Assembly (NCBI GenBank): GCA_020056635.1
Contig: JAGVHI010000024.1
Location: 2,317 to 66,316 of the forward strand
Length of the DNA stretch: 64,000 nt
Direction: 5' to 3'
Source: an archaeon
GTDB taxonomy: Archaea > Micrarchaeota > Micrarchaeia > Anstonellales > Anstonellaceae
Below the pieces are notes generated by a model that ran no database searches, was not told the DNA's origin, and worked only from the letters and a program-made list of their open reading frames with translations. Shown here one piece after another: positions 126 to 62,623 of the stretch. Each line of letters opens with the position of its first letter. Positions within the stretch are counted from its first letter, which is position 1. Made by a program: the position numbers and the translations under genes.

Positions 126-683
126 ATGAGCAAGAAAGACGTTATTCCAGGCTCCGCAGTCGGCACCGAGGAGGAGTACGTGTCCGGAAGCGGAACGTAC
201 GTGGAGGATGCGAACATATACTCCACTGTTTCGGGAATGCTGCACGAGGACCAGAGGACGCTTTCGGTGAACCAGCGCGTGCTGCTCCAGCCCATACATG
301 CGGGCGTGACAGTGCTTGGCAGGGTTGAAAATATAGTCGAGCCGATTGCGCTTGTGAGCATAATGGCGCTCCCGACCGATAAAGTAAGATATACGGAGAT
401 GCCGGATTATTGCGTGCTGCACGCATCAAGGGTGAAGGAAGGGTTCGTGAAGAACATACGCGGCGAGTTTAGGATTGGGGACATCATAAAGGCGAAAGTG
501 ATTGGCATCAAGAGCGGTGAGATCAGCCTTTCAACAGAGGGGCCGGAGCTCGGGGTTGTGAAGGGGTTCTGCGCAAAGTGCCGCAGCGTGCTCGAGCTTG
601 CTGGCGGAACGCTTAAATGCAATGCATGCGGGAACAGCGAGAACAGGAAAGTGTCGCGCGATTATCGGAAATTGGAGTTATAA
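126..683 (+). CDS. csl4: Exosome complex RNA-binding subunit Csl4
   Basis: ATG ORF of 185 aa. S1-like core plus C-terminal 4-Cys zinc ribbon (CAKC...CNAC). Lies directly upstream of rpoL, as in many archaea. TATA-like ATTATAAAGA at ~76-85. Confidence 0.75.
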   Translation: MSKKDVIPGSAVGTEEEYVSGSGTYVEDANIYSTVSGMLHEDQRTLSVNQRVLLQPIHAGVTVLGRVENIVEPIALVSIMALPTDKVRYTEMPDYCVLHASRVKEGFVKNIRGEFRIGDIIKAKVIGIKSGEISLSTEGPELGVVKGFCAKCRSVLELAGGTLKCNACGNSENRKVSRDYRKLEL

Positions 684-5882: not shown

Positions 5883-5941
5883 AAAAATGGCAGGCTTATA
5901 TTGCGGGAACGACATAATCATAGTGCAGATTGGGTGGTGGC

Positions 5942-8900
5942 ATGAAAGAAGGGCAGGGCAGGGGGGGGAGGCCGGAAAGCCAGGGGCTTTACGGGACTAT
6001 TGCGAAGCAATCAGGACTAAAATCCGTGCAGATAAGGCCGAAAAAGGGGCAGGGGCTTTCCATTCCAAGGAGATTTACCAAAGCGGGAGAGGACCCGTAT
6101 TCGCAGTTCAAGTGGGAGCAGAGAAGCTCGGTGATTCGGAACCCGGATGGGTCCACTGTTTTTGAGATGAATGACATCGAGGTGCCCAGTTTTTGGAGCC
6201 AGGTTGCAACGGACATACTTGCGCAGAAGTATTTCAGGAAAGCAGGGGTGCCGCAGGCTGATTCTTCTGGAAAGCCCGTATTGGGCTCGGATGAGAAGCC
6301 CGTGCTGGGGGCTGAGAGGACGCTTCGGCAGGTAGTGGACAGGCTATCTGGATGCTGGAGGGAATGGGGGGAGAAGAACGGCTATTTCAAGTCCAAGGAG
6401 GATGCGCAAGCGTATGAGGATGAAATGAAGTACATGCTTGCTGCGCAGATGGCTGCCCCAAACAGCCCGCAATGGTTCAATACAGGATTGGCTTGGGCGT
6501 ATGGGATTAGGGGGCACCCGCAAGGGCATTATTATGTTGACCCGGAAACCGAGGAGCTGAGAGCATCTGAGGATGCATATACCAGGCCCACCCCACATGC
6601 GTGCTTCATACAGTCGATTCGGGACGATTTGGTGAATGAGGGGGGGATATTTGATTTGGTGACGCGGGAGGCCAGGATATTCAAGTACGGGAGCGGCACC
6701 GGGACCAATTTCAGCGTGCTTCGGGGGGGCGGGGAAAGGCTCTCCGGAGGGGGCAAATCCTCGGGCATGATGTCGTTTTTGAAAATCAATGACAGGGCGG
6801 CAGGGGCCGTGAAATCAGGCGGGACTACACGGCGGGCTGCAAAAATGGTGATTGTGGATTTGGACCACCCGGATGTGGAACAGTTCATAGAGTGGAAAGT
6901 GCAGGAGGAGCAGAAAGTCGCTGCGATGGTGTGCGGAAGCAGGATACTCAATAGGGAATTGAACAATGTGATGAAAGTCGCGCTTGAGCAGAAGAGCTCG
7001 GATTACAAGCGGAACGTCGCGCTCATGAATGCGGTGAATTCCGCGGCTGAGAAAAGCGTGCCCATGAGCTACATTTTGCGCGCGCTTGCGCTGGTGGAGC
7101 AGGGGCATTCGAGCATGGAATTGCCCGAGTACACTACGCATTACGAGGGGGAAGCGTATCAGACAGTGTCAGGGCAGAATAGCAACAATTCGCTTAGGGT
7201 GCCAAACAGCTTTGTGAAAGCGCTAAAGGAGGACGGGCCCTGGTCGTTCCATTTCAGGACTACTGGAGAGGTTTCAAAAACCGTGCGTGCAAGGGAGCTT
7301 TGGGACAGGATTGCGTATTGCGCATGGGCGTGCGCTGACCCTGGAATACAGTTCGATGATACGATAAACGAGTGGAATACGTGCCCGAATGACGGTAGGA
7401 TAAATGCCACCAATCCGTGCTCTGAGTATGTATTCCTGGATGATACGGCGTGCAACCTTGCAAGCGTGAACCTCGGGAAGTTTTTGGATGAGAGGAGCGG
7501 GCAGTTCGATATCGAGGGGTTCAAGCACGCGTGCCGGCTCTGGACGATTACACTTGAGATTTCAGTGCTTATGGCGCAGTTTCCAAGCAAGGAGATTGCG
7601 CTTAGGTCTTATGAGTACAGAACACTGGGGCTGGGGTATGCAAACCTTGGGACAGTGCTTATGGTATTGGGAATCCCTTATGATTCTGATAAGGGGAGGG
7701 CGATTGCAGGCGCGCTTACCTCAATCATGTGCGGGGAGTCATATGCAACGAGCGCGGAGATGGCAGGCGTGCTTGGCGCGTTCCCTGGCTATGAGAGGAA
7801 CAAGGAGCACATGCTTAAGGTGATGAAGAACCATAGGCTTGCATCGTATAATGCAGAGAGCAGCGCATATGAGAAGCTCACAGTCACTCCGGTCGGGATA
7901 AATCCGCAATCGTGCCCGCCTGAATTGCTTTCTGTGGCAAGGGAGTGCTGGGACAGGGCGCTTGCAAACGGGGAGAAAAACGGGTATAGGAATGCGCAGG
8001 TGACCGTGATTGCGCCCACTGGAACAATAGGCTTGGTGATGGATTGCGATACTACAGGGGTTGAGCCTGATTTCGCGATTGTGAAATTCAAGAAATTGGC
8101 AGGGGGCGGGTATTTCAAAATCGTGAACCAGAGCGTGAGAAAAGCAATGGTCAGGCTTGGGTACGCTTCGCAGCAAATTGATGAGATGGAGAATTATTGC
8201 AGGGGGCATGGGACATTGGTAGGATGCCCGTATGTGAACCCTGAATCGCTTTCCTCAAAAGGGTTCACGAAAGAGGCCATTGCCGCGATTGAATCCCAGC
8301 TGCCGAACTCGTTTGACTTGAGGTTCTCGTTCAACAGGTACACGCTTGGCGAGGCGCTGTGCTCAAAGCTCGGGTTCACCCCCCAGCAGCTTGCGGACCA
8401 GAAGTTCAATGTGCTTCGCGCGCTCGGGTTCACAAAGGAGCAGATAAAGGAAGCGAATGAATACGTGTGCGGGACCATGACAATTGAGGGGGCGCCGCAC
8501 CTGCGTGTTGAGCACTATCCGATCTTCGATTGCGCGAACCGGTGCGGCAAGATTGGGGTGAGGTGCATAAATTACATGGCGCACGTGCGCATGATGGCCG
8601 CGGTGCAGCCGTTCATTTCCGGCGCGATTTCCAAAACCATAAACATGCCAAATGAGGCCGGGATTGAGGATGTGAAGAAAGCATACATGGAGAGCTGGAA
8701 TATGATGCTAAAGGCGCTTGCGCTCTACCGGGACGGGAGCAAGCTCTCGCAGCCCCTGAACACTTCTGTGGATGAGGAGGAAGAGGAGGAGAAGCCGAAA
8801 GCAGGGGTTACGCTTACGCTCACAGGGCAGCCTGCTTCCGTGCCTGCCGCGCCGGTTGCAGCCTATGCGTACAACAAAAAGCCGCTCCCGAAAAAAAGGA

Positions 8901-9541
8901 GGGGCTTTGTGCAGGAGGCGCGCGTTGGAGGGCACAAGGTGTACCTTAGGACCGGCGAATACCCAGATGGCGGGCTCGGGGAAATTTTCGTGGACATGTA
9001 CAAGGAAGGGGCTGGCTACCGTTCATTGCTCAACTGCTTTGCGATTGCTGTGAGCAAGGGGCTGCAGTACGGGGTGCCGCTTGAGGAGTATGTGGACACA
9101 TTCACTTTCACGCGGTTTGAGCCTTCCGGAATTGTGACCGGGCATGAGAACGTGAAGAACGCAACCTCGATTGTGGATTACGTGTTTAGGGTGCTTGGGT
9201 ACGAGTACTTGGGGAGGACTGATTTGGTGCACGTGCCTGGCGAGAACGGGAAGAATGGGAACGGGCACGGGCTGCAGGAAGCATCAGCGCATGAAGTGCA
9301 TGCGCATGCGGAAAAAGGGGCGCAGACCACGCTTGAGCCCGTGCGGCAGGCAGTATCGCACACTGCGCTTGCGGCTGCCGCAAGCGCGCTTGTGGGGGAG
9401 CTTGAGTCCAAAAGTTCGGAAGATGCGAAAATGCAGGGGTACACAGGAGAGCAGTGCTCGAACTGCGGGTCCATGAAAGTGAAAAGGAACGGTTCGTGCA
9501 CAGTTTGCACTGAATGCGGGGAAACGAGCGGGTGCTCGTGA
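5942..9541 (+). CDS. nrdJ: Class II (adenosylcobalamin-dependent) ribonucleotide reductase
   Basis: Motifs [25 protein letters not shown] and [21 protein letters not shown], with a C-terminal zinc ribbon CSNC...CTVCTEC. First ATG is at 5942; the ORF track starts at TTG 5930. Confidence 0.9.
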
Positions 9542-14544: not shown

Positions 14545-15111
14545 ATGGTGCCAAAACTAGAAAACGCCCAGTTTAGAATGCTCAGGCGCCCTTCTCATTC
14601 AGTTAGGGATACGTGCCGCCATGCATTAAGGCATCCGTGGCAGACGCTCAAGGACCTTGTATTGCTAGACAGGCAGTTTAGGCATGTTGAGAGGATTAGC
14701 GATACTGAAAAGGGGGTTTTCACCAATCTAGTGATAGCAAACATTGAAGCTGCATCAATTATGGGTGGCGATCCCAAGCTTAGGGCAGCGCTTGATTCCA
14801 AATTAGAGGAAATATGCGCAAACGAATCGCAATTGAGGAGCGAGTACGCGAAAATGAATAAGCACTACAAGGCAAGCGTTTGGACTGTTGCAATCACTTG
14901 CGCGATTGGGTTGGCGAATCTCGCGCTAAGCTACTTCGAAGTTGCATTGCCGCCCGTAGTTCGGGCCATAGCCTCGTACCTTAGCCTCCCGCCCATAGCG
15001 GCGGTTGCATTGCTCCTGCGCACGCACATAAAGCGCAAGCACGTGAAGGAAACCCTCTTTGAAATCGAGGTGACAAAAGAATTCGCAAGGGAGATGCAGA
15101 GTGGGGAATAG
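14545..15111 (+). CDS. Hypothetical membrane protein
   Basis: 188 aa with C-terminal TM helices. Flanked by an AT-rich divergent intergenic region. Confidence 0.4.
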   Translation: MVPKLENAQFRMLRRPSHSVRDTCRHALRHPWQTLKDLVLLDRQFRHVERISDTEKGVFTNLVIANIEAASIMGGDPKLRAALDSKLEEICANESQLRSEYAKMNKHYKASVWTVAITCAIGLANLALSYFEVALPPVVRAIASYLSLPPIAAVALLLRTHIKRKHVKETLFEIEVTKEFAREMQSGE

Positions 15112-15130
15112 AACTTTTCCGTCGGCATGT

Positions 15131-15256
15131 TTCTTTTTGGGGGTGAGCCCTCAGCCCCTTTGGAGAGGGAGTTACGGAAGAGCGAGAAGTTTTCCGTCAA
15201 ATTCTTTTCTTTTGGGGTGAAACCCTCAGCCCTTTTCTTTTCCCAAAAGAAAAGGG
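15131..15256 (-). repeat. tRNA-associated structured element, copy E5 (3' trailer of tRNA-Pro)
   Basis: On the minus strand, hairpin CCCTTTTCTTTT-GGG-AAAAGAAAAGGG is followed by purine tract AAAAGAAAAGAA. Two related hairpins follow, GGGCTGAGGGTTTCACCCC and GGGGCTGAGGGCTCACCCCC. The element begins 8 nt after the tRNA-Pro discriminator. Confidence 0.6.
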
Positions 15257-15264
15257 ATATGGGA

Positions 15265-15337
15265 TGGGGGATCAGAGATTTGAACTCTGACAACCAGCTC
15301 CCAAAGCTGGCAGCATACCAGGTTAGCTCAATCCCCC
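15265..15337 (-). tRNA. tRNA-Pro (anticodon UGG), uninterrupted
   Basis: Hand-folded cloverleaf: acceptor GGGGGAT/ATCCCCC, anticodon arm CCAGC-TTTGGGA-GCTGG, T arm CAGAG-TTCAAAT-CTCTG, discriminator A. 73 nt. Confidence 0.9.
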
Positions 15338-18091: not shown

Positions 18092-18320
18092 CCCGCCATA
18101 GCTCAACCTGGCTAGAGCGCCTGGCTGTAGTCTGCCAAATCGGCCTTATGCGATTGCGCATGTGGTCATCAGGAAGTTGTGTGTTCAATAGCCCTTTTCT
18201 CTCTCCGAGAGAAAAGCCCTCGTGGAAAAGAGAAACCATTTGGCGAAAAATATCCGCTTCGCGCGGTTTTTTCGCGCTGATAAAAGTCTCTTTTCGGCTG
18301 AACCAATCACACTGGCGGGA
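18092..18320 (+). tRNA. tRNA-Tyr (anticodon GUA) with two introns (229-nt gene)
   Basis: Acceptor CCCGCCA/TGGCGGG with the archaeal C1:G72 pair and discriminator A. D arm GCTC-AACCTGGCTA-GAGC. Anticodon stem CCTGG/TCAGG, loop CTGTAG|intron 18131-18167|A. T stem GTGTG/CACAC, with the T loop TTCA|~18188-18304|AAT interrupted. Confidence 0.8.
18188..18304 (+). repeat. tRNA-associated structured element, copy E1 (T-loop intron of tRNA-Tyr)
   Basis: Modules: CCCTTTTCTCTCTCCGAGAGAAAAG hairpin, GGAAAAGAGAAACC purine tract, GCGAAAAATATCCGCTTCGCGCGGTTTTTTCGC hairpin. The junction is ambiguous by 1-2 nt because of flanking A residues. Confidence 0.7.
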
Positions 18321-18357: not shown

Positions 18358-18511
18358 GCCTCGGTAATGTAGTGGTCTAGCATTCCGGCCTGTCGCAAGG
18401 CCCCTTTTCTTTCTTAAAAAGAAAGAAAATGCCCCTGGGTTCAAAAGAAAGAAACGGATCCAGCAACCTTGCAGAAAGTCGGCAACCCGGGTTCGAATCC
18501 CGGCCGAGGCG
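18358..18511 (+). tRNA. tRNA-Asp (anticodon GUC) with 81-nt canonical-position intron
   Basis: Acceptor GCCTCGG/CCGAGGC, discriminator G. Anticodon stem CCGGC/GTCGG, loop CTGTCG|intron 18396-18476|A. T arm CCGGG-TTCGAAT-CCCGG. Intron ends pair as GCAAGG/CCTTGC. Confidence 0.85.
18396..18476 (+). repeat. tRNA-associated structured element, copy E4 (short form, tRNA-Asp intron)
   Basis: CCCCTTTTCTTTCTT-AAAAAGAAAGAAAATG hairpin plus AAAAGAAAGAAAC purine tract. The third hairpin module is absent. Confidence 0.6.
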
Positions 18512-18524
18512 CTCCTTTTTCGTT

Positions 18525-19265
18525 TCACTTGTAAGCAGCCACTTTCAAACTCTCAAGCGGGAAGCCCTCGTATTGGCGCTTGCTGATTCCAGCGTCTTCG
18601 GACAGGGTTTTGATTGTGAAACCCGCACCGGTTATGAGCTTGAGATATTCGTCCTTCAATACCGCCCCGCCGACACAGCCTGCAATGAGCTCTTCGTTTT
18701 TCCTATCAGAAACAGAGAGCTCCTTTAGGAGGACGATGTCGGAAACGAAGAGCCGCCCGCCCTTTTTGAGCACCCTGTACGCCTCGGAGAATACCTTCCC
18801 CTTGTTGGGGGAGAGGTTGATGACACAGTTGCTTATGATTACATCTACTGAATTGTGCTCAACCGGAAGCTCCTCTATTTCCCCGAGCCTGAATTCCACG
18901 TTGGGGTAGCCGTATTTGGCTGCGTTGGCCCGCGCCTTCTCCACCATCGCATCAGTCATGTCAACCCCGATTACCTTGCCTGTTTTGCCGGTTTTTTTAG
19001 CGGCAAGGAAGCAGTCAAAGCCCGCGCCGGAGCCTAGGTCAAGCACGGTTTCCCCTTCCCTTATCTCGCCAAGCGCTGTCGGGTTGCCGCAGCCAAGCCC
19101 GAGGTTTGCGTCGGGCGCTGCGCTTATTTCCGCATCGGAATATCCGATGCTTTTGGCAATTTGCCCTGCGGCCTTGTTCCTGCAAGAGCACGAGCAGCCG
19201 CACCCTGATTGCGCTATTTTCCCGTAGCTTTCCTTCACTATTTTCTTGAGTTTACTAATCTCCAT
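18525..19265 (-). CDS. SAM-dependent methyltransferase, arsenite methyltransferase (ArsM)-like
   Basis: ATG at 19265 (MEISKL). Cys cluster [11 protein letters not shown] motif [11 protein letters not shown], and ISNCVINL. The upstream 139 codons of the tracked ORF overlap the HIT gene and look non-coding. Confidence 0.7.
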
Positions 19266-36028: not shown

Positions 36029-36158
36029 AAAATCACTTCGTTGTTCTGGGAATTGGTGCTAATAAAGAGTTGTCACGAAAATAAGCCCTAAGCCCCGGAG
36101 CGATATCGACATCCTTTTTATCCCCGCGCCCGCAAACTAAACTGCCTGCCCCTGTAGC

Positions 36159-36307
36159 AGGGCCTTTCTTTTCCTCCGGAAAAGAAACCCCCGAGAAAGA
36201 AAAGAACCATGACCGCGAAAAATATCCGCTTTTCGAGCAGGTTTTTTCGCCCAAGAAAATCGCCATGTCATTAGCTTTTTTATCTCTCGTCTCGAAATCA
36301 GAGTTAT
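36159..36307 (+). repeat. tRNA-associated structured element, copy E2 (flanked by duplicated tRNA-Thr 5' end)
   Basis: GGCCTTTCTTTTCCTCCGGAAAAGAAAC hairpin, GAGAAAGAAAAGAACC tract, GCGAAAAATATCCG...GGTTTTTTCGC hairpin. Its 3' part TTATCTC..CAGAGTT is shared with copy E3. Bounded by TGCCCCTGTAGC on both sides. Confidence 0.65.
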
Positions 36308-36403
36308 GCCCCTGTAGCTCAGCAGCAGAGCGCCTGTCTTGTAAGAGCATAACGCCCAATTCAGGAAAACAGGAGGTCGCGAGTGCAATCCTCGCCGGGG
36401 GCT
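36308..36403 (+). tRNA. tRNA-Thr (anticodon UGU) with 24-nt canonical intron
   Basis: Acceptor GCCCCTG/CGGGGGC. D arm GCTC-AGCAGCA-GAGC. Anticodon stem CCTGT/ACAGG, loop CTTGTA|intron 36344-36367|A. T arm GCGAG-TGCAATC-CTCGC. The D and T loops are atypical. Confidence 0.8.
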
Positions 36404-47508: not shown

Positions 47509-49095
47509 ATGGGCTCGCCTATCTACGACATTTTGAACAAGGCATGGAAATCGACTGCGCGAGTTTTATTTGGGGACGAGCTTGGGGAACTGGAAGATTA
47601 TGAGGACTGGCTGCTTTCCGGAATGCGCAAGCTCCGGTTTGAGAAATCTGCTTTATCGGGCAAGGAGGTAAGCCTTGCAATGCCTGAATATACCCCTAAT
47701 GCCCGCTTTTTGAGCTTTGATGAGATGGATTTCGGCAAGAAATTCGAGCCGCTTGGAATAAACGAAGTGAAGGATATTGATTCTGTTCTCGAGGCAATTT
47801 CAGAGCGCGTTTATTATACCGGCAACATAGTGCTGGGAGAATCGAAATATGTGGAGCGGAGCAGCAACATAGTGGACAGCCATTTCGTTTACTGTTCGAA
47901 CGTTGTTTCGGATTCGAAGTATATCGCATATTCAAGGGAAGCAAGGCTTTGTGAATACTGCTTTGGGTTCTTTGTTGGGGGGGAGTGCAGCTACACCGTG
48001 AAGTGCTGGGGGGGCAAAATGAAAAGGTGCTTTGAGTGCTACCATTCTGAGAGCAATTCTGATTCCTACTATTGCTTGGGGATACAAAACTGCCGCGACT
48101 GCATGTTCTGCTTCGGGCTGCAGAATGGCTCTTATGCAATAGGGAATCTGGCGCTGCCAGCGGAGAGATACAAGGGCATAAAACAGAAGCTGCTGTCGGA
48201 ACTTGTAGAAAAATTGAAGAAGGAGAAGAGCATATTCTCCCTATTGGATATCGTTGAGCAGGCAAAGGAGCACGAGGAGAGCAGCCTGCACCTGCCCCTT
48301 CCGCCCCAAAAACAGTTCAAAAAAGAAGTAGTGGAGGGGGCTTTTTCCCGCACAAGCGGCATTTTGCTTGGGAAAAGCCTGAGTGGGATTGACAGTTATG
48401 CCGGTTTCCTGCAAAAGCACGTGCCAAAGAACGTGATACTGAAATCCCCTCTGAGCGGGAAGAGGGTTTTGGTGGCAGGCTTCCGCTCATATGTGTTGGA
48501 CATGTTTGGGGTTGAGGGGCGGACAGTGGATATGGAAGAGCTTTGGGAAATCGGAAAGACGCATGTCGGGGAAAAAGAAGCATTATCCCTGAAAATGGAT
48601 GAGGGATATTTGGCAAAAGCATTGTCTCCGGTTGCTTACATCGCATTTGATGTGGGATATGGGAACATATCAAACATTGCAGATGCGGCTGTTGCAATAA
48701 ACTGCCAGGATTGCTATAATGGGTCTGCATTCGTAAATGCCAAAAAATGCGCCTATTGCTACTGGCCCCGCGAGTCTGAGCATATCTTCGGCTCTTCTGT
48801 AACCTGGATGTCTGCATTTTGCATGAAATGCTATTATTCGAAGAGGCTTACGCGCGCTTTCGAGTGCGATGCATGCGACAGCTGCTCTGACATTTACTTT
48901 TCGCACAACTGCGAGAATGTGAGGGATTCGATGTTCTGCTTCAATGTGAAGAACCTGAACTATGCTATAGGGAATGCGGCGCTTGCACCAGACAAGTACA
49001 AGCAGGTAAAGGCTAAACTGCTTGAGCAGGTTGCAGGCGAGCTTGAGAAGAAGAAGGACCTGAAATGGGATATATTTAAACTCTCGGAGAAATAA
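47509..49095 (+). CDS. CxxC-rich, internally duplicated protein of unknown function (paralog 1)
   Basis: 528 aa. Each half starts with an AW+..+VLFG....G.L.DY..WL helix. A run of CxxC-bearing short repeats follows, ending in C.DCMFCF.(V/L).N..YAIGN. Confidence 0.6.
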   Translation: MGSPIYDILNKAWKSTARVLFGDELGELEDYEDWLLSGMRKLRFEKSALSGKEVSLAMPEYTPNARFLSFDEMDFGKKFEPLGINEVKDIDSVLEAISERVYYTGNIVLGESKYVERSSNIVDSHFVYCSNVVSDSKYIAYSREARLCEYCFGFFVGGECSYTVKCWGGKMKRCFECYHSESNSDSYYCLGIQNCRDCMFCFGLQNGSYAIGNLALPAERYKGIKQKLLSELVEKLKKEKSIFSLLDIVEQAKEHEESSLHLPLPPQKQFKKEVVEGAFSRTSGILLGKSLSGIDSYAGFLQKHVPKNVILKSPLSGKRVLVAGFRSYVLDMFGVEGRTVDMEELWEIGKTHVGEKEALSLKMDEGYLAKALSPVAYIAFDVGYGNISNIADAAVAINCQDCYNGSAFVNAKKCAYCYWPRESEHIFGSSVTWMSAFCMKCYYSKRLTRAFECDACDSCSDIYFSHNCENVRDSMFCFNVKNLNYAIGNAALAPDKYKQVKAKLLEQVAGELEKKKDLKWDIFKLSEK

Positions 49096-49109
49096 TTTAC
49101 TTGCACATT

Positions 49110-49193
49110 GCCGAGGTGGCAGAATCTGGTATCGCGCTAGACTTGAGATCTAGTGCCCTTCGGGGCTTAGGAGTTCAAATCTCCTCCTCGGCG
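49110..49193 (+). tRNA. tRNA-Ser (anticodon UGA), uninterrupted
   Basis: Acceptor GCCGAGG/CCTCGGC. Anticodon arm CTAGA-CTTGAGA-TCTAG. Long variable arm TGCCCTTCGGGGCTT. T arm AGGAG-TTCAAAT-CTCCT. TATATTTAAA lies 30 nt upstream. Confidence 0.9.
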
Positions 49194-49198
49194 TTCGC

Positions 49199-60768: not shown

Positions 60769-60975
60769 TGGACTGGATGGGATTTCTGGGTGGCTAAAAC
60801 TCTGAGATAAGAAATATTTCTGGGTGAAAAAACCTGAGCGCGTGGCGCTCGGATATTTTTCATGCTCCCGGTTCTTTTCTTTCCCAGGGCTTTCTTTTCG
60901 CGGAGCGAAAAGAAAGGCCTGAACCCATGGCCTCTTCGTTGCGAACGAAGCGATCTACCGCTGATCTACCAGCCC
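60769..60975 (-). tRNA. tRNA-Ala (anticodon CGC) with 135-nt T-loop intron
   Basis: Acceptor GGGCTGG/CCAGTCC with G3:U70, discriminator A. D arm GATC-AGCGGTA-GATC. Anticodon arm CTTCG-TTCGCAA-CGAAG. T stem ATGGG/CCCAT with T loop TTCA|60785-60919|AAT. Confidence 0.8.
60785..60919 (-). repeat. tRNA-associated structured element, copy E3 (T-loop intron of tRNA-Ala)
   Basis: GGCCTTTCTTTTCGCTCCGCGAAAAGAAAGCC hairpin, GGGAAAGAAAAGAACC tract, and TGAAAAATATCCGAGCGCCACGCGCTCAGGTTTTTTCA hairpin. Confidence 0.7.
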
Positions 60976-61010: not shown

Positions 61011-61030
61011 CGGTGTGGAGTTGTTATACC

Positions 61031-62623
61031 ATGGGAGGAGGAGTGGAGGAAACCCTTTCTGTGCTCGATAAGAGATGGAGGGGCGCTTGCAGGGTGCTGT
61101 TTAAGGAGGAGGTTGGCGGGCTTGCGGAATTCTCTTCTTACCTCTCTGAACTTCCTGAAAAAGTAACGCACCATCAATCGAACATTTCTGGAAAAGATGT
61201 TTCGTGCGCACCAACCGCATATGCAGAAGGTTCAAAATTTATTAGTTTCAATGAGGTTGATTTCAACAGGAAGTTCGAGTCATTGAACATAAATGAAATT
61301 AAGGATATTGATTCGATAGTCGAAGCGTTGGGCGAAAGGGCGGTTTATTCAGGCAATATAGTTTTCGGGAATTCCGGGCACGTTGAGAAAAGCTCGAACA
61401 TAAATGACAGCTTTTACCTTTATGAAGTTGCAAGGTGCGGGAATTCCAAATACATTGCTTACGGCTCGATATTCAGGTATAATGAAGATTGTTTTGGAAG
61501 CAATGTTATAGGGGAATCGGCGTTCTGCATCCGCTGTAACAGGGGTCTTAGGCTCAAGCGCTGCTTCGAGCTCTGGATGGTGCAGAATAGCTCTGATTGC
61601 TATTACTCATCTGGTCTGGATGGATGCAGCGAATGCATGTTTTGCTTCAATGTGAAAAATAAGAGGCATGCCATCGGGAATCTGGCGCTTGAAGCGGCAG
61701 AATACGAAAAAATCAAGAAAAAACTCCTTTCAGAGATGGCAGAAGGCCTTAGGAAGGGGAAAAAACTGCCCTCGCTTCTTGACTTGGTAAAGATGAGTAG
61801 AAAGGAAGAAATACCTGCAATACGGACCAGTTCGAAAATCTTGGAGAAACAAGACAAGGACAGGATTGAAGATGCTTTCTCGCAAACCGCATCTATACTG
61901 TTCGGCAACAGACTTACCGGAGGGATAGATGCTTATTCTGATTGGCTGAGTGGGCATACGAGGCCCATTGGAGAAGGCATTTCTGCGGCAAGCGGCAAAA
62001 GGATACTGATAGCACCATTCGCAAACTTCTCCAAACTTCCAGCAGATAGGATAATGACTGAAGAGGCGTGGGAGCTTGGAGGGAGAACTTCTTTAACAGA
62101 ATCTGAAGTTGGGGAATTGAGCATGAAAAACGCCCACGAGACGATCGGAAAGCTAGCATATTTCAATGTGGATTTGTTTGAAGGAAAAAATTCGAATATG
62201 ATAGACTGCACATATGCTGTCGATTCAGCGGATTGCTACAAAAATTCTAACTCGCTGTATTCCAAATATTGCGGCTATTGCTTCTGGCCCAGGAACAGCC
62301 AATACTTGTTTGGGTGCGATTCCCCATTCGATTCTGCATTCTCAATGCATGCGTATTCCTGTACCCAGCTTACGAGATGCTTTGAGGCAGACTGCTGCGG
62401 CTACTGCTCGGACCTGTATTTCGGGCACAATTGCGAGAACGTGCACGAGAGCATGTTCTGCTTCAATGTGAAGAACAGGAGATACCATATAGGGAATGCC
62501 GAAGTGGAACAGGGGAAATACAAGGAGCTGAAGGCATCGCTTCTAGGGCAGATTCATCAGGAGTTGCAGAAGAAAAAAGGGCTGAAGTGGGACATTTACA
62601 ACATCTGGAGCGCGAAAAAATGA
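61031..62623 (+). CDS. CxxC-rich, internally duplicated protein of unknown function (paralog 2)
   Basis: 530 aa, colinear with 47509-49095. Shared blocks include ISFNEVDFNRKFE, INEIKDIDSIVEA, CSECMFCFNVKNKRHAIGNLAL and HNCENVHESMFCFNVKN. Confidence 0.6.
   Translation: MGGGVEETLSVLDKRWRGACRVLFKEEVGGLAEFSSYLSELPEKVTHHQSNISGKDVSCAPTAYAEGSKFISFNEVDFNRKFESLNINEIKDIDSIVEALGERAVYSGNIVFGNSGHVEKSSNINDSFYLYEVARCGNSKYIAYGSIFRYNEDCFGSNVIGESAFCIRCNRGLRLKRCFELWMVQNSSDCYYSSGLDGCSECMFCFNVKNKRHAIGNLALEAAEYEKIKKKLLSEMAEGLRKGKKLPSLLDLVKMSRKEEIPAIRTSSKILEKQDKDRIEDAFSQTASILFGNRLTGGIDAYSDWLSGHTRPIGEGISAASGKRILIAPFANFSKLPADRIMTEEAWELGGRTSLTESEVGELSMKNAHETIGKLAYFNVDLFEGKNSNMIDCTYAVDSADCYKNSNSLYSKYCGYCFWPRNSQYLFGCDSPFDSAFSMHAYSCTQLTRCFEADCCGYCSDLYFGHNCENVHESMFCFNVKNRRYHIGNAEVEQGKYKELKASLLGQIHQELQKKKGLKWDIYNIWSAKK

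Follow-up and report, generated by a model that had tools for sequence, protein, structure and literature searches.

What is the folded element of 80–150 nt that lies within or next to five of six tRNA genes in the window, i.e. the whole 64,000-nt stretch of micrarchaeal DNA analyzed here, and how did it come to be there? A preliminary description of the window had noticed a recurrent arrangement of hairpin A, purine tract B, and hairpin C at these loci and had left the choice between a mobile intron-like parasite and a functional RNA released by tRNA splicing. In silico, the element is in most cases a spliceable intron. The evidence leans to a mobile or selfish intron, because the copies cluster by genome and the orthologues decay by deletion while the exons stay nearly identical. 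The element probably represents a family of long introns of the bulge-helix-bulge (BHB) type that fold on their own, are specific to the lineage, and have spread to several tRNA genes and to several positions in these genes.

tRNA genes of the window and their element copies

ARAGORN and Rfam recovered the genes for tRNA-Pro, -Ser, -Ala, and -Thr. Those for tRNA-Tyr and tRNA-Asp were missed or mis-called by these programs because of their long introns, and were recovered by an acceptor/T-arm scan. The element was searched by direct hairpin and regex scans, in which the related sequence covered amounted to approximately 150 kb. All five copies were found where the preliminary description had placed them and in the orientation of the tRNA; within the window the modules recur at tRNA-Tyr, -Ala, -Thr, -Asp, and -Pro and nowhere else. 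The hairpin scan of the window detected no copy at tRNA-Ser, in agreement with its earlier singling out as the one tRNA gene without the element.

The genes for tRNA-Tyr and tRNA-Asp have the following parts:

18092–18320, + strand: tRNA-Tyr(GUA) gene with two introns, found by the acceptor/T-arm scan; valid tRNA-Tyr after in-silico splicing
18131–18167, + strand: ordinary anticodon-loop intron of 37 nt at 37/38 of tRNA-Tyr, not related to the element; BHB with central helix H 4/4 and flanking helix h of 5
18189–18305, + strand: first element copy, a T-loop intron of 117 nt at 58/59 of tRNA-Tyr, comprising modules A, B, C, and Y2; relaxed BHB
18191–18219, + strand: module A of the Tyr copy, hairpin CUUUUCUCUC / GAGAGAAAAG
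18224–18237, + strand: R2, i.e. module B of the Tyr copy, GGAAAAGAGAAACC, mirroring R1 (mirror run 9, direct run 7)
18243–18275, + strand: module C of the Tyr copy, GCGAAAAA-UAU-CCGC-UUCGC-GCGG-UUUUUUCGC
18358–18512, + strand: tRNA-Asp(GUC) gene, found by the acceptor/T-arm scan; splices in silico to a valid tRNA
18396–18476, + strand: second element copy, an intron of 81 nt at 37/38 of tRNA-Asp; BHB of the strict hBHBh′ form (H 4/4, h of 5, h′ of 4)
18399–18433 and 18443–18455, + strand: modules A and B of the Asp copy, module C being a deletion remnant only

The remaining loci include the copies that lie outside a mature tRNA body, or may do so:

36148–36158, + strand: upstream duplicate of the first 11 nt of tRNA-Thr (GCCCCUGUAGC), read from the sequence
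36159–36307, + strand: third element copy, 5′ of tRNA-Thr or within it; A 36160–36192, B 36193–36208, C 36215–36250
36308–36403, + strand: tRNA-Thr(UGU) gene, Rfam 51.4 bits; valid after splicing
36344–36367, + strand: ordinary 24-nt anticodon intron of tRNA-Thr; BHB with h of 5
60770–60975, − strand: tRNA-Ala(CGC) gene, from ARAGORN, Rfam, the acceptor/T-arm scan, and in-silico splicing
60786–60920, − strand: fourth element copy, a T-loop intron of 135 nt at 56/57 of tRNA-Ala; HBh′
60887–60919, 60870–60885, 60825–60862, and 60802–60814, − strand: modules A, B, C, and Y2 of the Ala copy, respectively
15265–15337, − strand: tRNA-Pro(UGG) gene, intronless, from ARAGORN and Rfam
15131–15256, − strand: fifth element copy, in the tRNA-Pro 3′ trailer, of divergent A+B form; A 15230–15256, B 15202–15213
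49109–49194, + strand: tRNA-Ser(UGA) gene, the sole tRNA gene of the window without the element

The element proved specific to these sites. Perfect 8-bp pyrimidine/purine hairpins were confined to the five element loci within the window and to tRNA introns within the related loci, and none was present in unrelated loci amounting to 620 kb. Of the exact 12-mer GAAAAATATCCG, the window has three occurrences, each within an element copy. Rfam, at gathering and at permissive thresholds (E ≤ 10), returned only tRNA in the window and the related loci, consistent with the earlier remark that it was not recognised as a described element.

Junctions of the intron copies

BHB motifs were formed at the exon–intron junctions of every copy within a tRNA body in the window, strict at 37/38 and relaxed in the T-loops. 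When copies from related genomes were included, the central helix H was present with 4/4 pairs and in the correct register in all nine intron copies tested. The flanking helix h measured 5–6 bp at 37/38, and h′ measured 2–4 bp in the T-loops. The strict hBHBh′ form was found at 37/38 in tRNA-Asp of the window, in its counterpart in GCA_053535515.1 (locus L093), and in tRNA-Glu (L031) and tRNA-Ile (L075) of another metagenome-assembled genome; the HBh′ form, with two 3-nt bulges, was found in the T-loop copies of the window Tyr and Ala genes, in tRNA-Ser (L086), and in the Tyr remnant of L093. The BHB search gave no clear motif for the T-loop intron of tRNA-Asp in a more distant relative (L095). 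The intron copies start right at the h′ helix (AGGCC/AGCC), so that the element itself contributes part of the BHB.

In-silico splicing yielded tRNAs accepted by ARAGORN for Tyr, Ala, and Asp of the window, Asp and Tyr of L093, Glu of L031, and Ile of L075. The intron limits given earlier for Tyr (18188–18304) and Ala (60785–60919) are equivalent to ours (18189–18305 and 60786–60920), and those for Asp (18396–18476) are the same. In the Tyr copy, HBh′ consists of GUUC/GAAC with the bulges AA-U and CA-A and of h′ AGCC/GGCU; in the Ala copy, it consists of GGGU/ACCC with the bulges UC-A and AG-A and of h′ GGC/GCC. The minimum-energy fold of the entire pre-tRNA-Ala reproduced this BHB arrangement. 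An open reading frame in the Ala copy (ATGAAAAAT...) was ruled out, since the other copies read GCGAAAAAT.

Among the five window copies, those of Pro and Thr, which lie in the 3′ trailer and the 5′ flank, are not plain introns. The modules announced for the Thr locus are present there. On either side of the copy stands an 11-nt sequence from the tRNA-Thr 5′ end, as a direct repeat (36148–36158 and 36308–36318), and the tail of the copy carries Y2 and a TATA-like sequence TTTTTTATC at 36275–36286. The upstream 11-nt sequence pairs with the acceptor 3′ strand in the minimum-energy fold, and a candidate HBh′ at 11/12 consists of UGUA/UGUA, including two G-U pairs, and h′ GGG/CCC. The upstream sequence could represent a target that was duplicated or, if there is an intron at 11/12, its exon 1; the copy lies in the 5′ flank and is only possibly an intron at that position. 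The Pro copy was verified as a divergent A+B form 3′ of the tRNA and outside it. Its A+B is followed by a second unit, GGGGCUGAGGGCUCACCCCC-AAAAAGAAAC, and the orthologous tRNA-Pro trailer in L093 has no hairpin. Splicing of the element introns is a prediction from sequence, and one that does not extend in plain form to the Thr and Pro copies.

No splicing endonuclease gene was found among the approximately 50 ORFs of the window that were scanned. Relaxed BHBs at non-canonical positions require an endonuclease of broad specificity, either an alpha-beta heterotetramer or epsilon2. The epsilon2 splicing endonuclease of Micrarchaeum is of this kind and cleaves strict as well as relaxed BHB motifs (PMC3239211). 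At their length, the elements are much too short to be group I or group II self-splicing introns, for which Rfam, finding tRNA only, gave no support.

Fold of the modules

The element copies folded better than shuffled sequences, with z-scores from −3.1 to −5.6 (−4.2 for Tyr and −5.6 for Ala), except for the Pro copy, whose fold was at the shuffled level (z −0.3). Module B had been described as a repeat of the 3′ arm of A. It is a repeat, but not a direct one: in the seven full copies it is the mirror image of that arm. In these copies and the window Asp copy, the mirror match always exceeds the direct match (9–11 against 7–10 nt), and the mirror matches span at least four different G spacings. 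In the Pro and L095 copies, B is a direct repeat instead. A and B change together from copy to copy; in MAFFT alignments, the arms of hairpin A, being of low complexity, fall out of register. A fourth module, the pyrimidine tract Y2, is present in four copies and pairs with B in the computed folds. In the Tyr copy, B pairs with Y2 at 18287–18295, and the energy of the R2:Y2 duplex (−11.9 kcal/mol) was matched by none of 500 shuffles.

Module C, with the stem GCGAAAAAUAUCCG...GGUUUUUUCGC, is a terminator-like hairpin, the lower stem and bulge of which are invariant in all eight C-bearing copies; 21 nt are identical in these eight copies, which come from at least two, probably three, genomes. 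The apical helix varies with compensation (GCUC/GAGC, GCGC/GCGC, GAGCGC/GCGCUC, GCU/AGC, and CCGC/GCGG), and the stem base shows a compensatory C:G to U:A change in the Ala copy. The U6 run of C resembles the T4–T6 runs found 3′ of tRNA genes in the window.

The order of the tracts, i.e. pyrimidine arm, loop, purine arm, short linker, and mirror purine arm, is the layout of a fold-back R·R-Y triplex. As a sequence motif, R1-linker-R2 is a homopurine mirror repeat beside its Watson-Crick pyrimidine partner. The layout appears to be of triplex type, the triplex itself being hypothetical. In design, A and B resemble intramolecular purine-motif triplexes and H-DNA mirror repeats (PMC7583470; PMC11667243). 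They differ from these in the low complexity of their tracts and in the additional pairing of B, in four copies, with a pyrimidine tract farther downstream. Evidence on purine-motif triplexes with RNA strands is mixed (PMC7583470), and homopurine mirror repeats are described as forming polymerase-stalling H-DNA (PMC11667243). We tentatively raise the idea, which has a rather low probability of being right, that the element represents a new class of tRNA-borne elements in which a triplex-capable A/B core and an invariant terminator-like hairpin drive spread or make a stable trans-acting RNA. The triplex would form in RNA or in a displaced DNA strand, and the trans-acting RNA would be freed by tRNA processing. 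If an RNA triplex forms, it would to our knowledge be a rare natural purine-motif RNA triple helix with covariation support.

Copies in related genomes

Further copies with compensatory changes were found in related genomes. The element is present in the tRNA-Asp intron of GCA_053535515.1, in the tRNA introns of Glu, Ile, and Ser (the L031, L075, and L086 loci) and in one truncated tRNA of the metagenome-assembled genome DeMMO2_7, and, as a simpler A+B form, in tRNA-Asp of the distant relative L095. With those of the window, all 12 copies are in the orientation of the host tRNA; they sit at 37/38, 56/57, 58/59, in a 5′ flank, in a 3′ trailer, and possibly at 11/12. In a wider genome scan, 83 of 87 matches were chance matches in bacteria and only the four DeMMO2_7 loci were real. 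A metagenome scan with a strict B+C pattern, probably too strict, gave three chance matches only, in AT-rich coding sequence, and a scan of a virus collection gave one chance match, in an actinophage terminator, with no hint of viral origin. The Micrarchaeota loci L094, L097, and L098 contained no tRNA genes. The methyltransferase adjoining the window locus is a mobile arsenite methyltransferase and unusable for synteny; enolase is usable.

The earlier view of the inserts as paralogous, structured, and tRNA-linked at different tRNA positions is upheld by the homologous copies and their folds. The closest pairs of copies come from the same genome and sit in different tRNAs or at different positions: the L075 Ile copy (37/38) and the L086 Ser copy (T-loop) are 86% identical, and the Ala and Thr copies of the window are 72% identical. 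Between the window and L093, the exons are 99–100% identical and the spacers 60–72%. The element intron of tRNA-Tyr measures 117 nt in the window and 37 nt in L093, which amounts to a large indel, whereas the ordinary 37/38 intron of the same gene is 92% identical to its L093 orthologue. In tRNA-Asp, the orthologous L093 intron has full A+B+C, and the window copy has lost C. This pattern of copying and decay fits introns spreading between tRNA genes.

The host tRNAs of the similar introns differ in anticodon and in body. The window Ala and L086 Ser copies, however, have common T-arm flanks (ATGGGTTC / AAATCCCAT), so that gene conversion through the T-arm is possible. In a distant relative, tRNA-Tyr has a T-loop intron with the same ends and other content. 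The tRNA-Tyr T-loop intron thus predates the element family, and some copies may therefore be insertions into pre-existing introns. DeMMO2_7 also has tRNA 3′-end fragments beside tRNA-Ser, which are typical of integration scars.

Proposed course of spread and decay

The spreading of BHB introns might proceed as follows. The element would be transcribed within the pre-tRNA, where hairpin A, the B:Y2 helix, and hairpin C are predicted to fold on their own before the short h′ joins the intron ends. The intron ends and adjacent exon nucleotides then form, in silico, the 4-bp helix with its two flanking 3-nt bulges. The host splicing endonuclease would cut the bulges and an RNA ligase would join the exons, such cuts yielding a normal tRNA in silico, and the excised intron would probably be freed as a stable, perhaps circular, RNA. 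New copies between tRNA genes would arise at the DNA level by a transposition-like or gene-conversion route, those surviving being copies that keep the BHB or lie outside the tRNA body, and older copies would decay through deletion. Most simply, the lower stem of C, invariant as it is, and the coupled tracts of A and B would serve propagation or correct folding in cis and not a cellular function.

Several points weigh on this explanation. Among them are that the Thr and Pro copies are not plain introns and that the T-loop intron of tRNA-Tyr is older than the family. There was no transposase, integrase, or reverse transcriptase among the approximately 50 housekeeping ORFs of the window, which speaks against a spreading intron. 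The invariance of 21 nt of C, set against neutral spacers of 60–72% identity, could equally mean selection for an RNA function. The U6 run would be expected to impede transcription of the intron, an odd property in a mere passenger.

Alternative explanations

The element might instead be a functional small RNA for which tRNA genes are the expression platform, transcribed from their promoters and acting in trans, in linear or circular form, although we give this a rather low probability. It would be released by splicing from the introns, by RNase P from the Thr 5′ copy, and by tRNase Z from the Pro 3′ copy, so intron, leader, and trailer copies would all be set free by normal tRNA processing; module C would be a protein-binding site and the purine/pyrimidine tracts interaction surfaces. 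The invariant lower stem and bulge of C with its compensated apical helix, the co-variation of A and B, and the presence of a copy in five of six tRNA genes agree with such a role, and precedents exist in the box C/D sRNA of pre-tRNA-Trp, circular tRNA introns, and mRNA-regulating tRNA introns of yeast. However, the element is gutted in one lineage in both orthologous comparisons, which argues against strong selection on each copy. Neither C (RUGAUGA)/D (CUGA) nor H/ACA boxes are conserved in the element alignments, and a guide RNA of either kind was rejected on this ground; there was no Rfam match, and no target could be identified. The Pro copy, moreover, lies behind a T-rich stretch that possibly already ends transcription, and folds no better than chance.

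It is unlikely that the element is a non-autonomous, MITE-like DNA element that is kept in safe sites near or in tRNA genes and owes its BHB motifs to older introns. Several observations are of the kind expected of it: the direct repeat around the Thr copy is like a target duplication or att scar, the Pro copy lies outside the tRNA, the tRNA-Tyr intron of the distant relative combines the same ends with different content, and the fragments beside tRNA-Ser of DeMMO2_7 are of the integration-scar type. A mobile-element model has also been put forward for the gain of a tRNA fragment and intron in Caldiarchaeum (PMC3293823). Terminal inverted repeats were looked for and not found, however, and none of seven intron copies has flanking duplications, the direct repeat being seen at Thr only. 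Within one replication arm, tRNA genes on either DNA strand have the copy in their own orientation, contrary to a strand rule, and the element begins at the h′ helix and so supplies part of the BHB. The other intergenic regions of the window contain no copies, and no transposase was found among its ORFs.

Still less probable is a cis regulator of tRNA output, with C as a terminator or pause site within the intron and the A/B mirror repeat stalling the polymerase or switching conformation, so that the level of full-length pre-tRNA would be adjusted. C is shaped like an intrinsic terminator, and the same pattern is a gene-end terminator in an unrelated phage. Oligo-T is the archaeal transcription termination signal; T4–T6 runs follow the tRNA genes of the window, and T runs are absent from the ordinary introns of the same genes. 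The homopurine mirror repeat R1-linker-R2 has the motif that forms polymerase-stalling H-DNA (PMC11667243). Against such regulation, module C is dispensable in window Asp and the entire interior in L093 Tyr, no sensing element or ligand is apparent, and the set of tRNAs with the element varies between genomes, unlike a conserved regulon. We know of no established case of hairpin-dependent attenuation in archaea, which also counts against it. A split-gene idea, with a promoter in module C or the GAAAUAU tail, was discarded, as the local tRNA promoters are TTTAAA and the tail motif is missing in several copies.

That the loci are dead tRNA pseudogenes with junk insertions, or assembly artefacts, is highly improbable: standard finders do miss or mis-call Tyr and Asp, but pseudogenes are rejected by exons conserved at 99–100% beside spacers at 60–72% and by BHB motifs retained in the correct register at all junctions, and an artefact by the independent assembly of a like arrangement in the window and three other assemblies.

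Relation to known systems

For spreading BHB introns there is a parallel. Archaeal tRNA introns had been taken as usually short and mutually unrelated; they are not always unrelated: in the Thermoproteales, similar introns occur at different positions in different tRNAs, and intron transposition has been proposed (Fujishima 2010, Mol Biol Evol 27:2233, as summarised in PMC4090602). The two cases are alike in that the BHB is the sole junction requirement and that spread is recent and within a lineage, by a route presumed to be at the DNA level. They differ in that the present element belongs to another phylum (Micrarchaeota, DPANN), measures 80–150 nt, has several hairpins and an invariant 21-nt core, and also occurs as flank copies. 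The tRNA introns of the Thermoproteales are short, mostly a few tens of nt. Thus, jumping tRNA introns are already known; the length, the common modular fold, the invariant terminator-like hairpin, and the mirror purine tract are new.

Micrarchaeota have many non-canonical tRNA introns (PMC3239211). ARMAN-2 (Candidatus Micrarchaeum acidiphilum), of the same phylum, likewise has relaxed BHBs and many disrupted tRNA genes, with introns at T-loop positions 53/54 and 59/60 and at 37/38, and the element copies are likewise in T-loops and at 37/38 (PMC3239211, PMC3488258). The ARMAN-2 introns assayed in vitro were of 13 and 25 nt, as against 80–150 nt here, and we found no mention of a shared structured intron family in these two articles.

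Functional RNAs from tRNA introns include a box C/D sRNA carried by the intron of archaeal pre-tRNA-Trp (cited in PMC4090602), stable circular tRNA introns or tricRNAs (PMC3326292, PMC4536317), and yeast tRNA introns that regulate mRNAs (PMC13079951). By analogy, the element could be a structured RNA in an intron that is released by the endonuclease and maybe stabilised by circularisation; it differs in having no C/D or H/ACA boxes or guide-target logic, in having many hosts, and in the decay of its orthologues. The Thr locus, with a 5′ tRNA fragment, an insert, and a complete tRNA, is like sites of integration at tRNA genes (tRNA-Thr of Caldiarchaeum, PMC3293823; pNOB8/SSV-type). The Thr insert, in contrast, is just 149 nt, encodes no recombinase, and is homologous to genuine introns elsewhere.

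For intron gain in archaeal tRNA genes, the short introns of the Thermoproteales offer few handles. The present family is more tractable, because it is long, information-rich, and easily recognised, and because several stages have been caught, from complete copies to remnants left by deletion and copies in tRNA flanks with an 11-nt duplication. It would provide a second, unrelated phylum for intron spread, with a mechanism that is directly testable, and its invariant hairpin and mirror-repeat tract are candidates for a cis signal or a function of the excised RNA. Long introns of this kind also hide tRNA genes from standard finders, which would inflate the count of ‘missing tRNAs’ in DPANN genomes.

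Results

Element copies in the window and in related genomes

ARAGORN and Rfam detected tRNA-Pro, Ser, Ala, and Thr of the six tRNA genes in the window; the long introns of tRNA-Tyr and tRNA-Asp caused both genes to be missed or mis-called, and a simple acceptor/T-arm scan recovered them. A preliminary description had assigned a modular element to every one of these genes except tRNA-Ser. We found that the five loci are real: the pyrimidine/purine hairpin A is followed by the purine tract B at each of them, module C (GCGAAAAATATCCG-variable-GGTTTTTTC) comes after A+B in three of the five, and only tRNA-Ser is devoid of a copy.

Element copies in the window
15131-15256, minus strand: copy at tRNA-Pro, A then B
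18188-18304: copy in tRNA-Tyr, A then B
18396-18476: copy in tRNA-Asp, A then B
36159-36307: copy at tRNA-Thr, A then B
60785-60919, minus strand: copy in tRNA-Ala, A then B

A hairpin scan located perfect 8-bp homopyrimidine/homopurine hairpins at these five loci only within the window, exclusively in tRNA introns in related loci, and nowhere in 620 kb of unrelated loci. The exact module C 12-mer occurs three times in the window, each time within an element copy.

The nearest relatives of the window enolase and of a 530-aa cysteine-rich protein are from Micrarchaeota (a DPANN phylum), and the approximately 50 ORFs of the window are ordinary housekeeping genes. As the preliminary description had proposed, further copies were sought in related genomes, and they were present in three. 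When one genome per species was scanned for the pattern, module C was identified four times in one archaeal MAG, DeMMO2_7 (JAGVIA01): at position 37/38 of tRNA-Glu(CUC) and tRNA-Ile(GAU), in the T-loop of tRNA-Ser(CGA), and in a tRNA cut off by the contig end. The remaining 83 matches were chance matches in bacteria. Among the DeMMO2_7 loci compared, no gene was common to the window. In L093 (GCA_053535515.1), whose enolase is 84% identical to that of the window and which is syntenic with the window around tRNA-Tyr and tRNA-Asp, the tRNA-Asp intron holds a complete A+B+C element, and the 37-nt tRNA-Tyr T-loop intron retains only the first arm of A and the intron 3' end. A distant Micrarchaeota contig, L095 (GCA_040960315.1), carries a simpler A+B element in a tRNA-Asp T-loop intron. 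Metagenome and virus scans gave chance matches only.

Candidate splice junctions

To each copy inside a tRNA body we applied a bulge-helix-bulge (BHB) test (a 4-bp helix with 3-nt bulges on both strands, each cut behind its second nucleotide), in the register giving the correct mature sequence. The central helix H was complete in all eight tabulated intron copies, which answers the junction check called for in the preliminary description. Copies at 37/38 have a strict or near-strict BHB, and T-loop copies a relaxed HBh' motif.

Predicted splice junctions (h and h', flanking helices)
Window Asp, 37/38: H 4/4; h 5 bp, h' 4 bp
L031 Glu (DeMMO2_7), 37/38: H 4/4; h 6 bp, h' 3 bp
L075 Ile (DeMMO2_7), 37/38: H 4/4; h 5 bp
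L093 Asp, 37/38: H 4/4; h 5 bp, h' 1 bp
Window Tyr, T-loop 58/59: H 4/4 (GUUC/GAAC); h' 4 bp (AGCC/GGCU)
Window Ala, T-loop 56/57: H 4/4 (GGGU/ACCC); h' 3 bp (GGC/GCC)
L086 Ser (DeMMO2_7), T-loop: H 4/4; h' 2 bp
L093 Tyr remnant, T-loop: H 4/4; h' 4 bp

When the whole pre-tRNA-Ala was folded, its minimum-energy structure showed the same arrangement as the HBh' motif, and ARAGORN accepted the tRNAs once the inserts had been deleted in silico. In ARMAN-2, 56% of the tRNA genes are disrupted, with introns at 37/38, 53/54, and 59/60, and the three-unit epsilon2 endonuclease cuts both strict and relaxed BHBs (PMC3239211). The element introns of the window, with their predicted BHBs, agree with these published Micrarchaeota introns.

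Divergence of the copies

Copies are most similar within one genome, even across different tRNAs and positions: identity is 86% between L075 Ile (37/38) and L086 Ser (T-loop) and 72% between the window Ala and Thr copies. The T-arm flanks of window Ala and DeMMO2_7 Ser are identical. Between the window and L093, identity is 99-100% in tRNA exons, 92% in the ordinary Tyr anticodon intron, and 60-72% in spacers, whereas the element introns measure 117 versus 37 nt (Tyr) and 81 versus 107 nt (Asp, where module C of the window is a remnant). Two genomes have the tRNA-Asp element intron at 37/38; in L095 it is a T-loop intron. The tRNA-Tyr T-loop intron of L095 has the same position and 3' end and a covarying h' helix, with different content; thus, the intron site is old and its interior turns over. 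In that gene (L095:8078-8303, minus strand), an anticodon intron accompanies the approximately 150-nt T-loop intron at 58/59, which is filled by GC-rich hairpins together with CCCCAAAA motifs; T-loop introns of this long, structured kind may be a general feature of Micrarchaeota.

A conserved family with decaying single copies is the usual signature of a multiplying element, unlike what is expected for a gene selected at each locus. The copy homology, BHB geometry, tRNA restoration, clustering by genome, and orthologue decay seen in silico probably reflect a family of BHB introns that spread as DNA from one tRNA gene to another and are excised from RNA by the usual splicing enzymes. Our account of the element's transcription, cleavage, ligation, and circularisation, and of how it is copied, is inferred. 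The strong autonomous hairpins and the short closing helix would prevent an insert of 100 nt from interfering with tRNA folding and would keep the splice sites in contact. Such spread would resemble the transposition of introns put forward for Thermoproteales (Fujishima 2010, as cited in PMC4090602). The element is genuine, and the preliminary description read it in a largely sound way. The relatedness of tRNA introns, which it had considered unusual, is a known phenomenon: similar introns have been described from many positions in tRNAs, and Micrarchaeota are known for heavy disruption of their tRNA genes. For this particular element, neither a matching Rfam family nor a description in the searchable literature was found.

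Structure of a full copy

A full copy begins with a short strand, AGGCC or AGCC, and ends with its complement. Hairpin A (pyrimidine arm Y1, purine arm R1) has 9-12 bp, and a linker of 3-8 nt separates it from tract B (R2). Hairpin C follows in the order GCGAAAAA, UAU bulge, CC, variable apical helix, bulged A, GG, UUUUUUCGC, and in four copies its 3' tail has a pyrimidine tract, Y2. In single-sequence folds against shuffled controls, five full copies were far stabler (z-scores -3.1 to -5.6); the window Asp copy scored -2.3 and the Pro copy -0.3. For window Tyr, Ala, and Thr and for L075 Ile, B paired with Y2 more favourably than with shuffled tails (the observed energy was reached by 0-15 of 500 shuffles); L093 Asp, L031 Glu, and L086 Ser showed no such advantage.

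Module C is supported by compensatory changes, the covariation whose absence the preliminary description had considered damaging: the apical helix, missing from L093 Asp, varies as GCUC/GAGC, GCGC/GCGC, GAGCGC/GCGCUC, GCU/AGC, and CCGC/GCGG, and a C:G pair of the stem base is U:A in the Ala copy. The lower stem and bulge (12+9 nt) are without any change, so that 21 nt are invariant in eight copies while everything around varies, which would imply sequence-specific recognition, for propagation or RNA function. The GC hairpin is followed by U6 and resembles an intrinsic terminator. The tRNA genes of the window end in T4-T6 runs, and the ordinary introns of element-bearing tRNA genes have no T runs; a U6 run within an intron should, judged from sequence, entail loss of full-length transcript.

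The preliminary description had tract B repeating the 3' arm of A. The tracts are indeed related, though not by direct repetition: in all seven full copies and window Asp, B is the mirror image of R1 and so parallel-complementary to Y1. Mirror matches are 9-11 nt long, against 7-10 nt for direct matches, with at least four different G spacings, the tracts being of low complexity and the margin merely 1-3 nt. The window Asp hairpin is longer than that of L093 Asp, and the extra length is exactly such as to extend the mirror match; the Pro and L095 copies have direct repeats instead. Y1, loop, R1, short linker, and mirror purine arm stand in the order classically given for a putative fold-back purine-motif triplex, and R1-linker-R2 is also a mirror repeat of the H-DNA type (PMC7583470; PMC11667243). 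Purine-motif triplexes that include RNA strands have mixed experimental support (PMC7583470).

The spread of BHB introns leaves the invariant module C, the terminator-like U6, and mirror tract B unexplained. All three would suit a functional small RNA carried by tRNA processing, which we consider unlikely, as orthologous copies decay. Of all its parts, the invariant hairpin and mirror-repeat tract most deserve experimental attention.

Thr and Pro copies

The Thr element is flanked on both sides by GCCCCTGTAGC, the first 11 nt of tRNA-Thr, each with a TATA-like box approximately 33 nt upstream. Two routes are possible from the sequence and yield an identical mature tRNA: RNase P may cut before the complete downstream gene, the element being a leader, or splicing may occur at 11/12 with the upstream GCCCCTGTAGC as exon 1. 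A weak HBh' exists at 11/12 (UGUA/UGUA with two G-U pairs, plus GGG/CCC), and in the minimum-energy fold the upstream GCCCCTGTAGC pairs with the acceptor 3' strand. The topology (tRNA fragment, insert, complete tRNA) is that left by integration at tRNA genes, e.g. in Caldiarchaeum (PMC3293823). The T-loop of this tRNA-Thr(UGU) (window 36374-36400) reads UGCAAUC, with G where nearly all tRNAs carry U55; that of the related tRNA-Thr(CGU) in DeMMO2_7 has the usual form, UUCAAAU.

The Pro copy, a divergent A+B form, starts 8 nt 3' of the tRNA and may lie outside its transcript. What the orthologous L093 trailer has in common with the window is limited to the initial CCCTTTT and one block further downstream; therefore, the Pro copy was gained or remodelled in the window lineage. 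The window trailer (15100-15230, minus strand) contains a tandem duplication of GGG(G)CUGAGGG(U/C)U(U)CACCCC(C)-AAAAAGAAA...GACGGAAAA(C/G)UUCU. Downstream of tRNA-Pro in L093 (4620-4865, minus strand), five or six GC-rich hairpins (approximately 150 nt), absent from the window and without a match in Rfam, are flanked by a block that the window also has (TTGACGGAAAACNTCTCGCTCTTC) and could be another unannotated RNA or element.

The Thr and Pro copies and the old Tyr intron would also fit a MITE-like DNA element sheltered in older introns and flanks, but inverted ends and target duplications are wanting, orientation follows the tRNA strictly on both strands, and no copies occur elsewhere in the window, making this improbable. 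A cis-regulatory terminator or attenuator would match the shape of module C and is less probable still, since module C is dispensable. Pseudogenes or artefacts, contradicted by exon conservation and independent assemblies, can hardly be credited.

Neighbouring features

At L086, 3' of tRNA-Ser(CGA), two additional tRNA-Ser 3'-end fragments (AAAATCCCATC..., AATTCAATCCTCGGCGC; 189-262, minus strand) look like att-type scars of past integrations; beyond them (89-160) lies a tRNA-Thr(CGU) without an intron. The surroundings of tRNA-Tyr/Asp form a hot spot for insertions (window 18525-19265, minus strand; L093:8001-8976): between tRNA-Asp and enolase, the window carries an arsenite methyltransferase whose close homologues occur DPANN-wide, and between TerC and tRNA-Tyr, L093 carries a HEPN/nucleotidyltransferase pair. 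An unusually long class II ribonucleotide reductase ORF (window 5930-9541, 1203 aa) has approximately 240 residues without domain assignment between the barrel and TSCPD domains, and Pfam showed no intein domain in it. GC skew is strongly positive almost throughout window 1-64000 (0.2-0.3 in many 4-kb windows), and the cumulative skew climbs steadily. The 530-aa cysteine-rich protein has two paralogues in the window (47509-49095 and 61013-62623; approximately 44% identical); the family lacks a Pfam domain, is essentially confined to Micrarchaeota, and has tandem or nearby paralogues in several relatives too.
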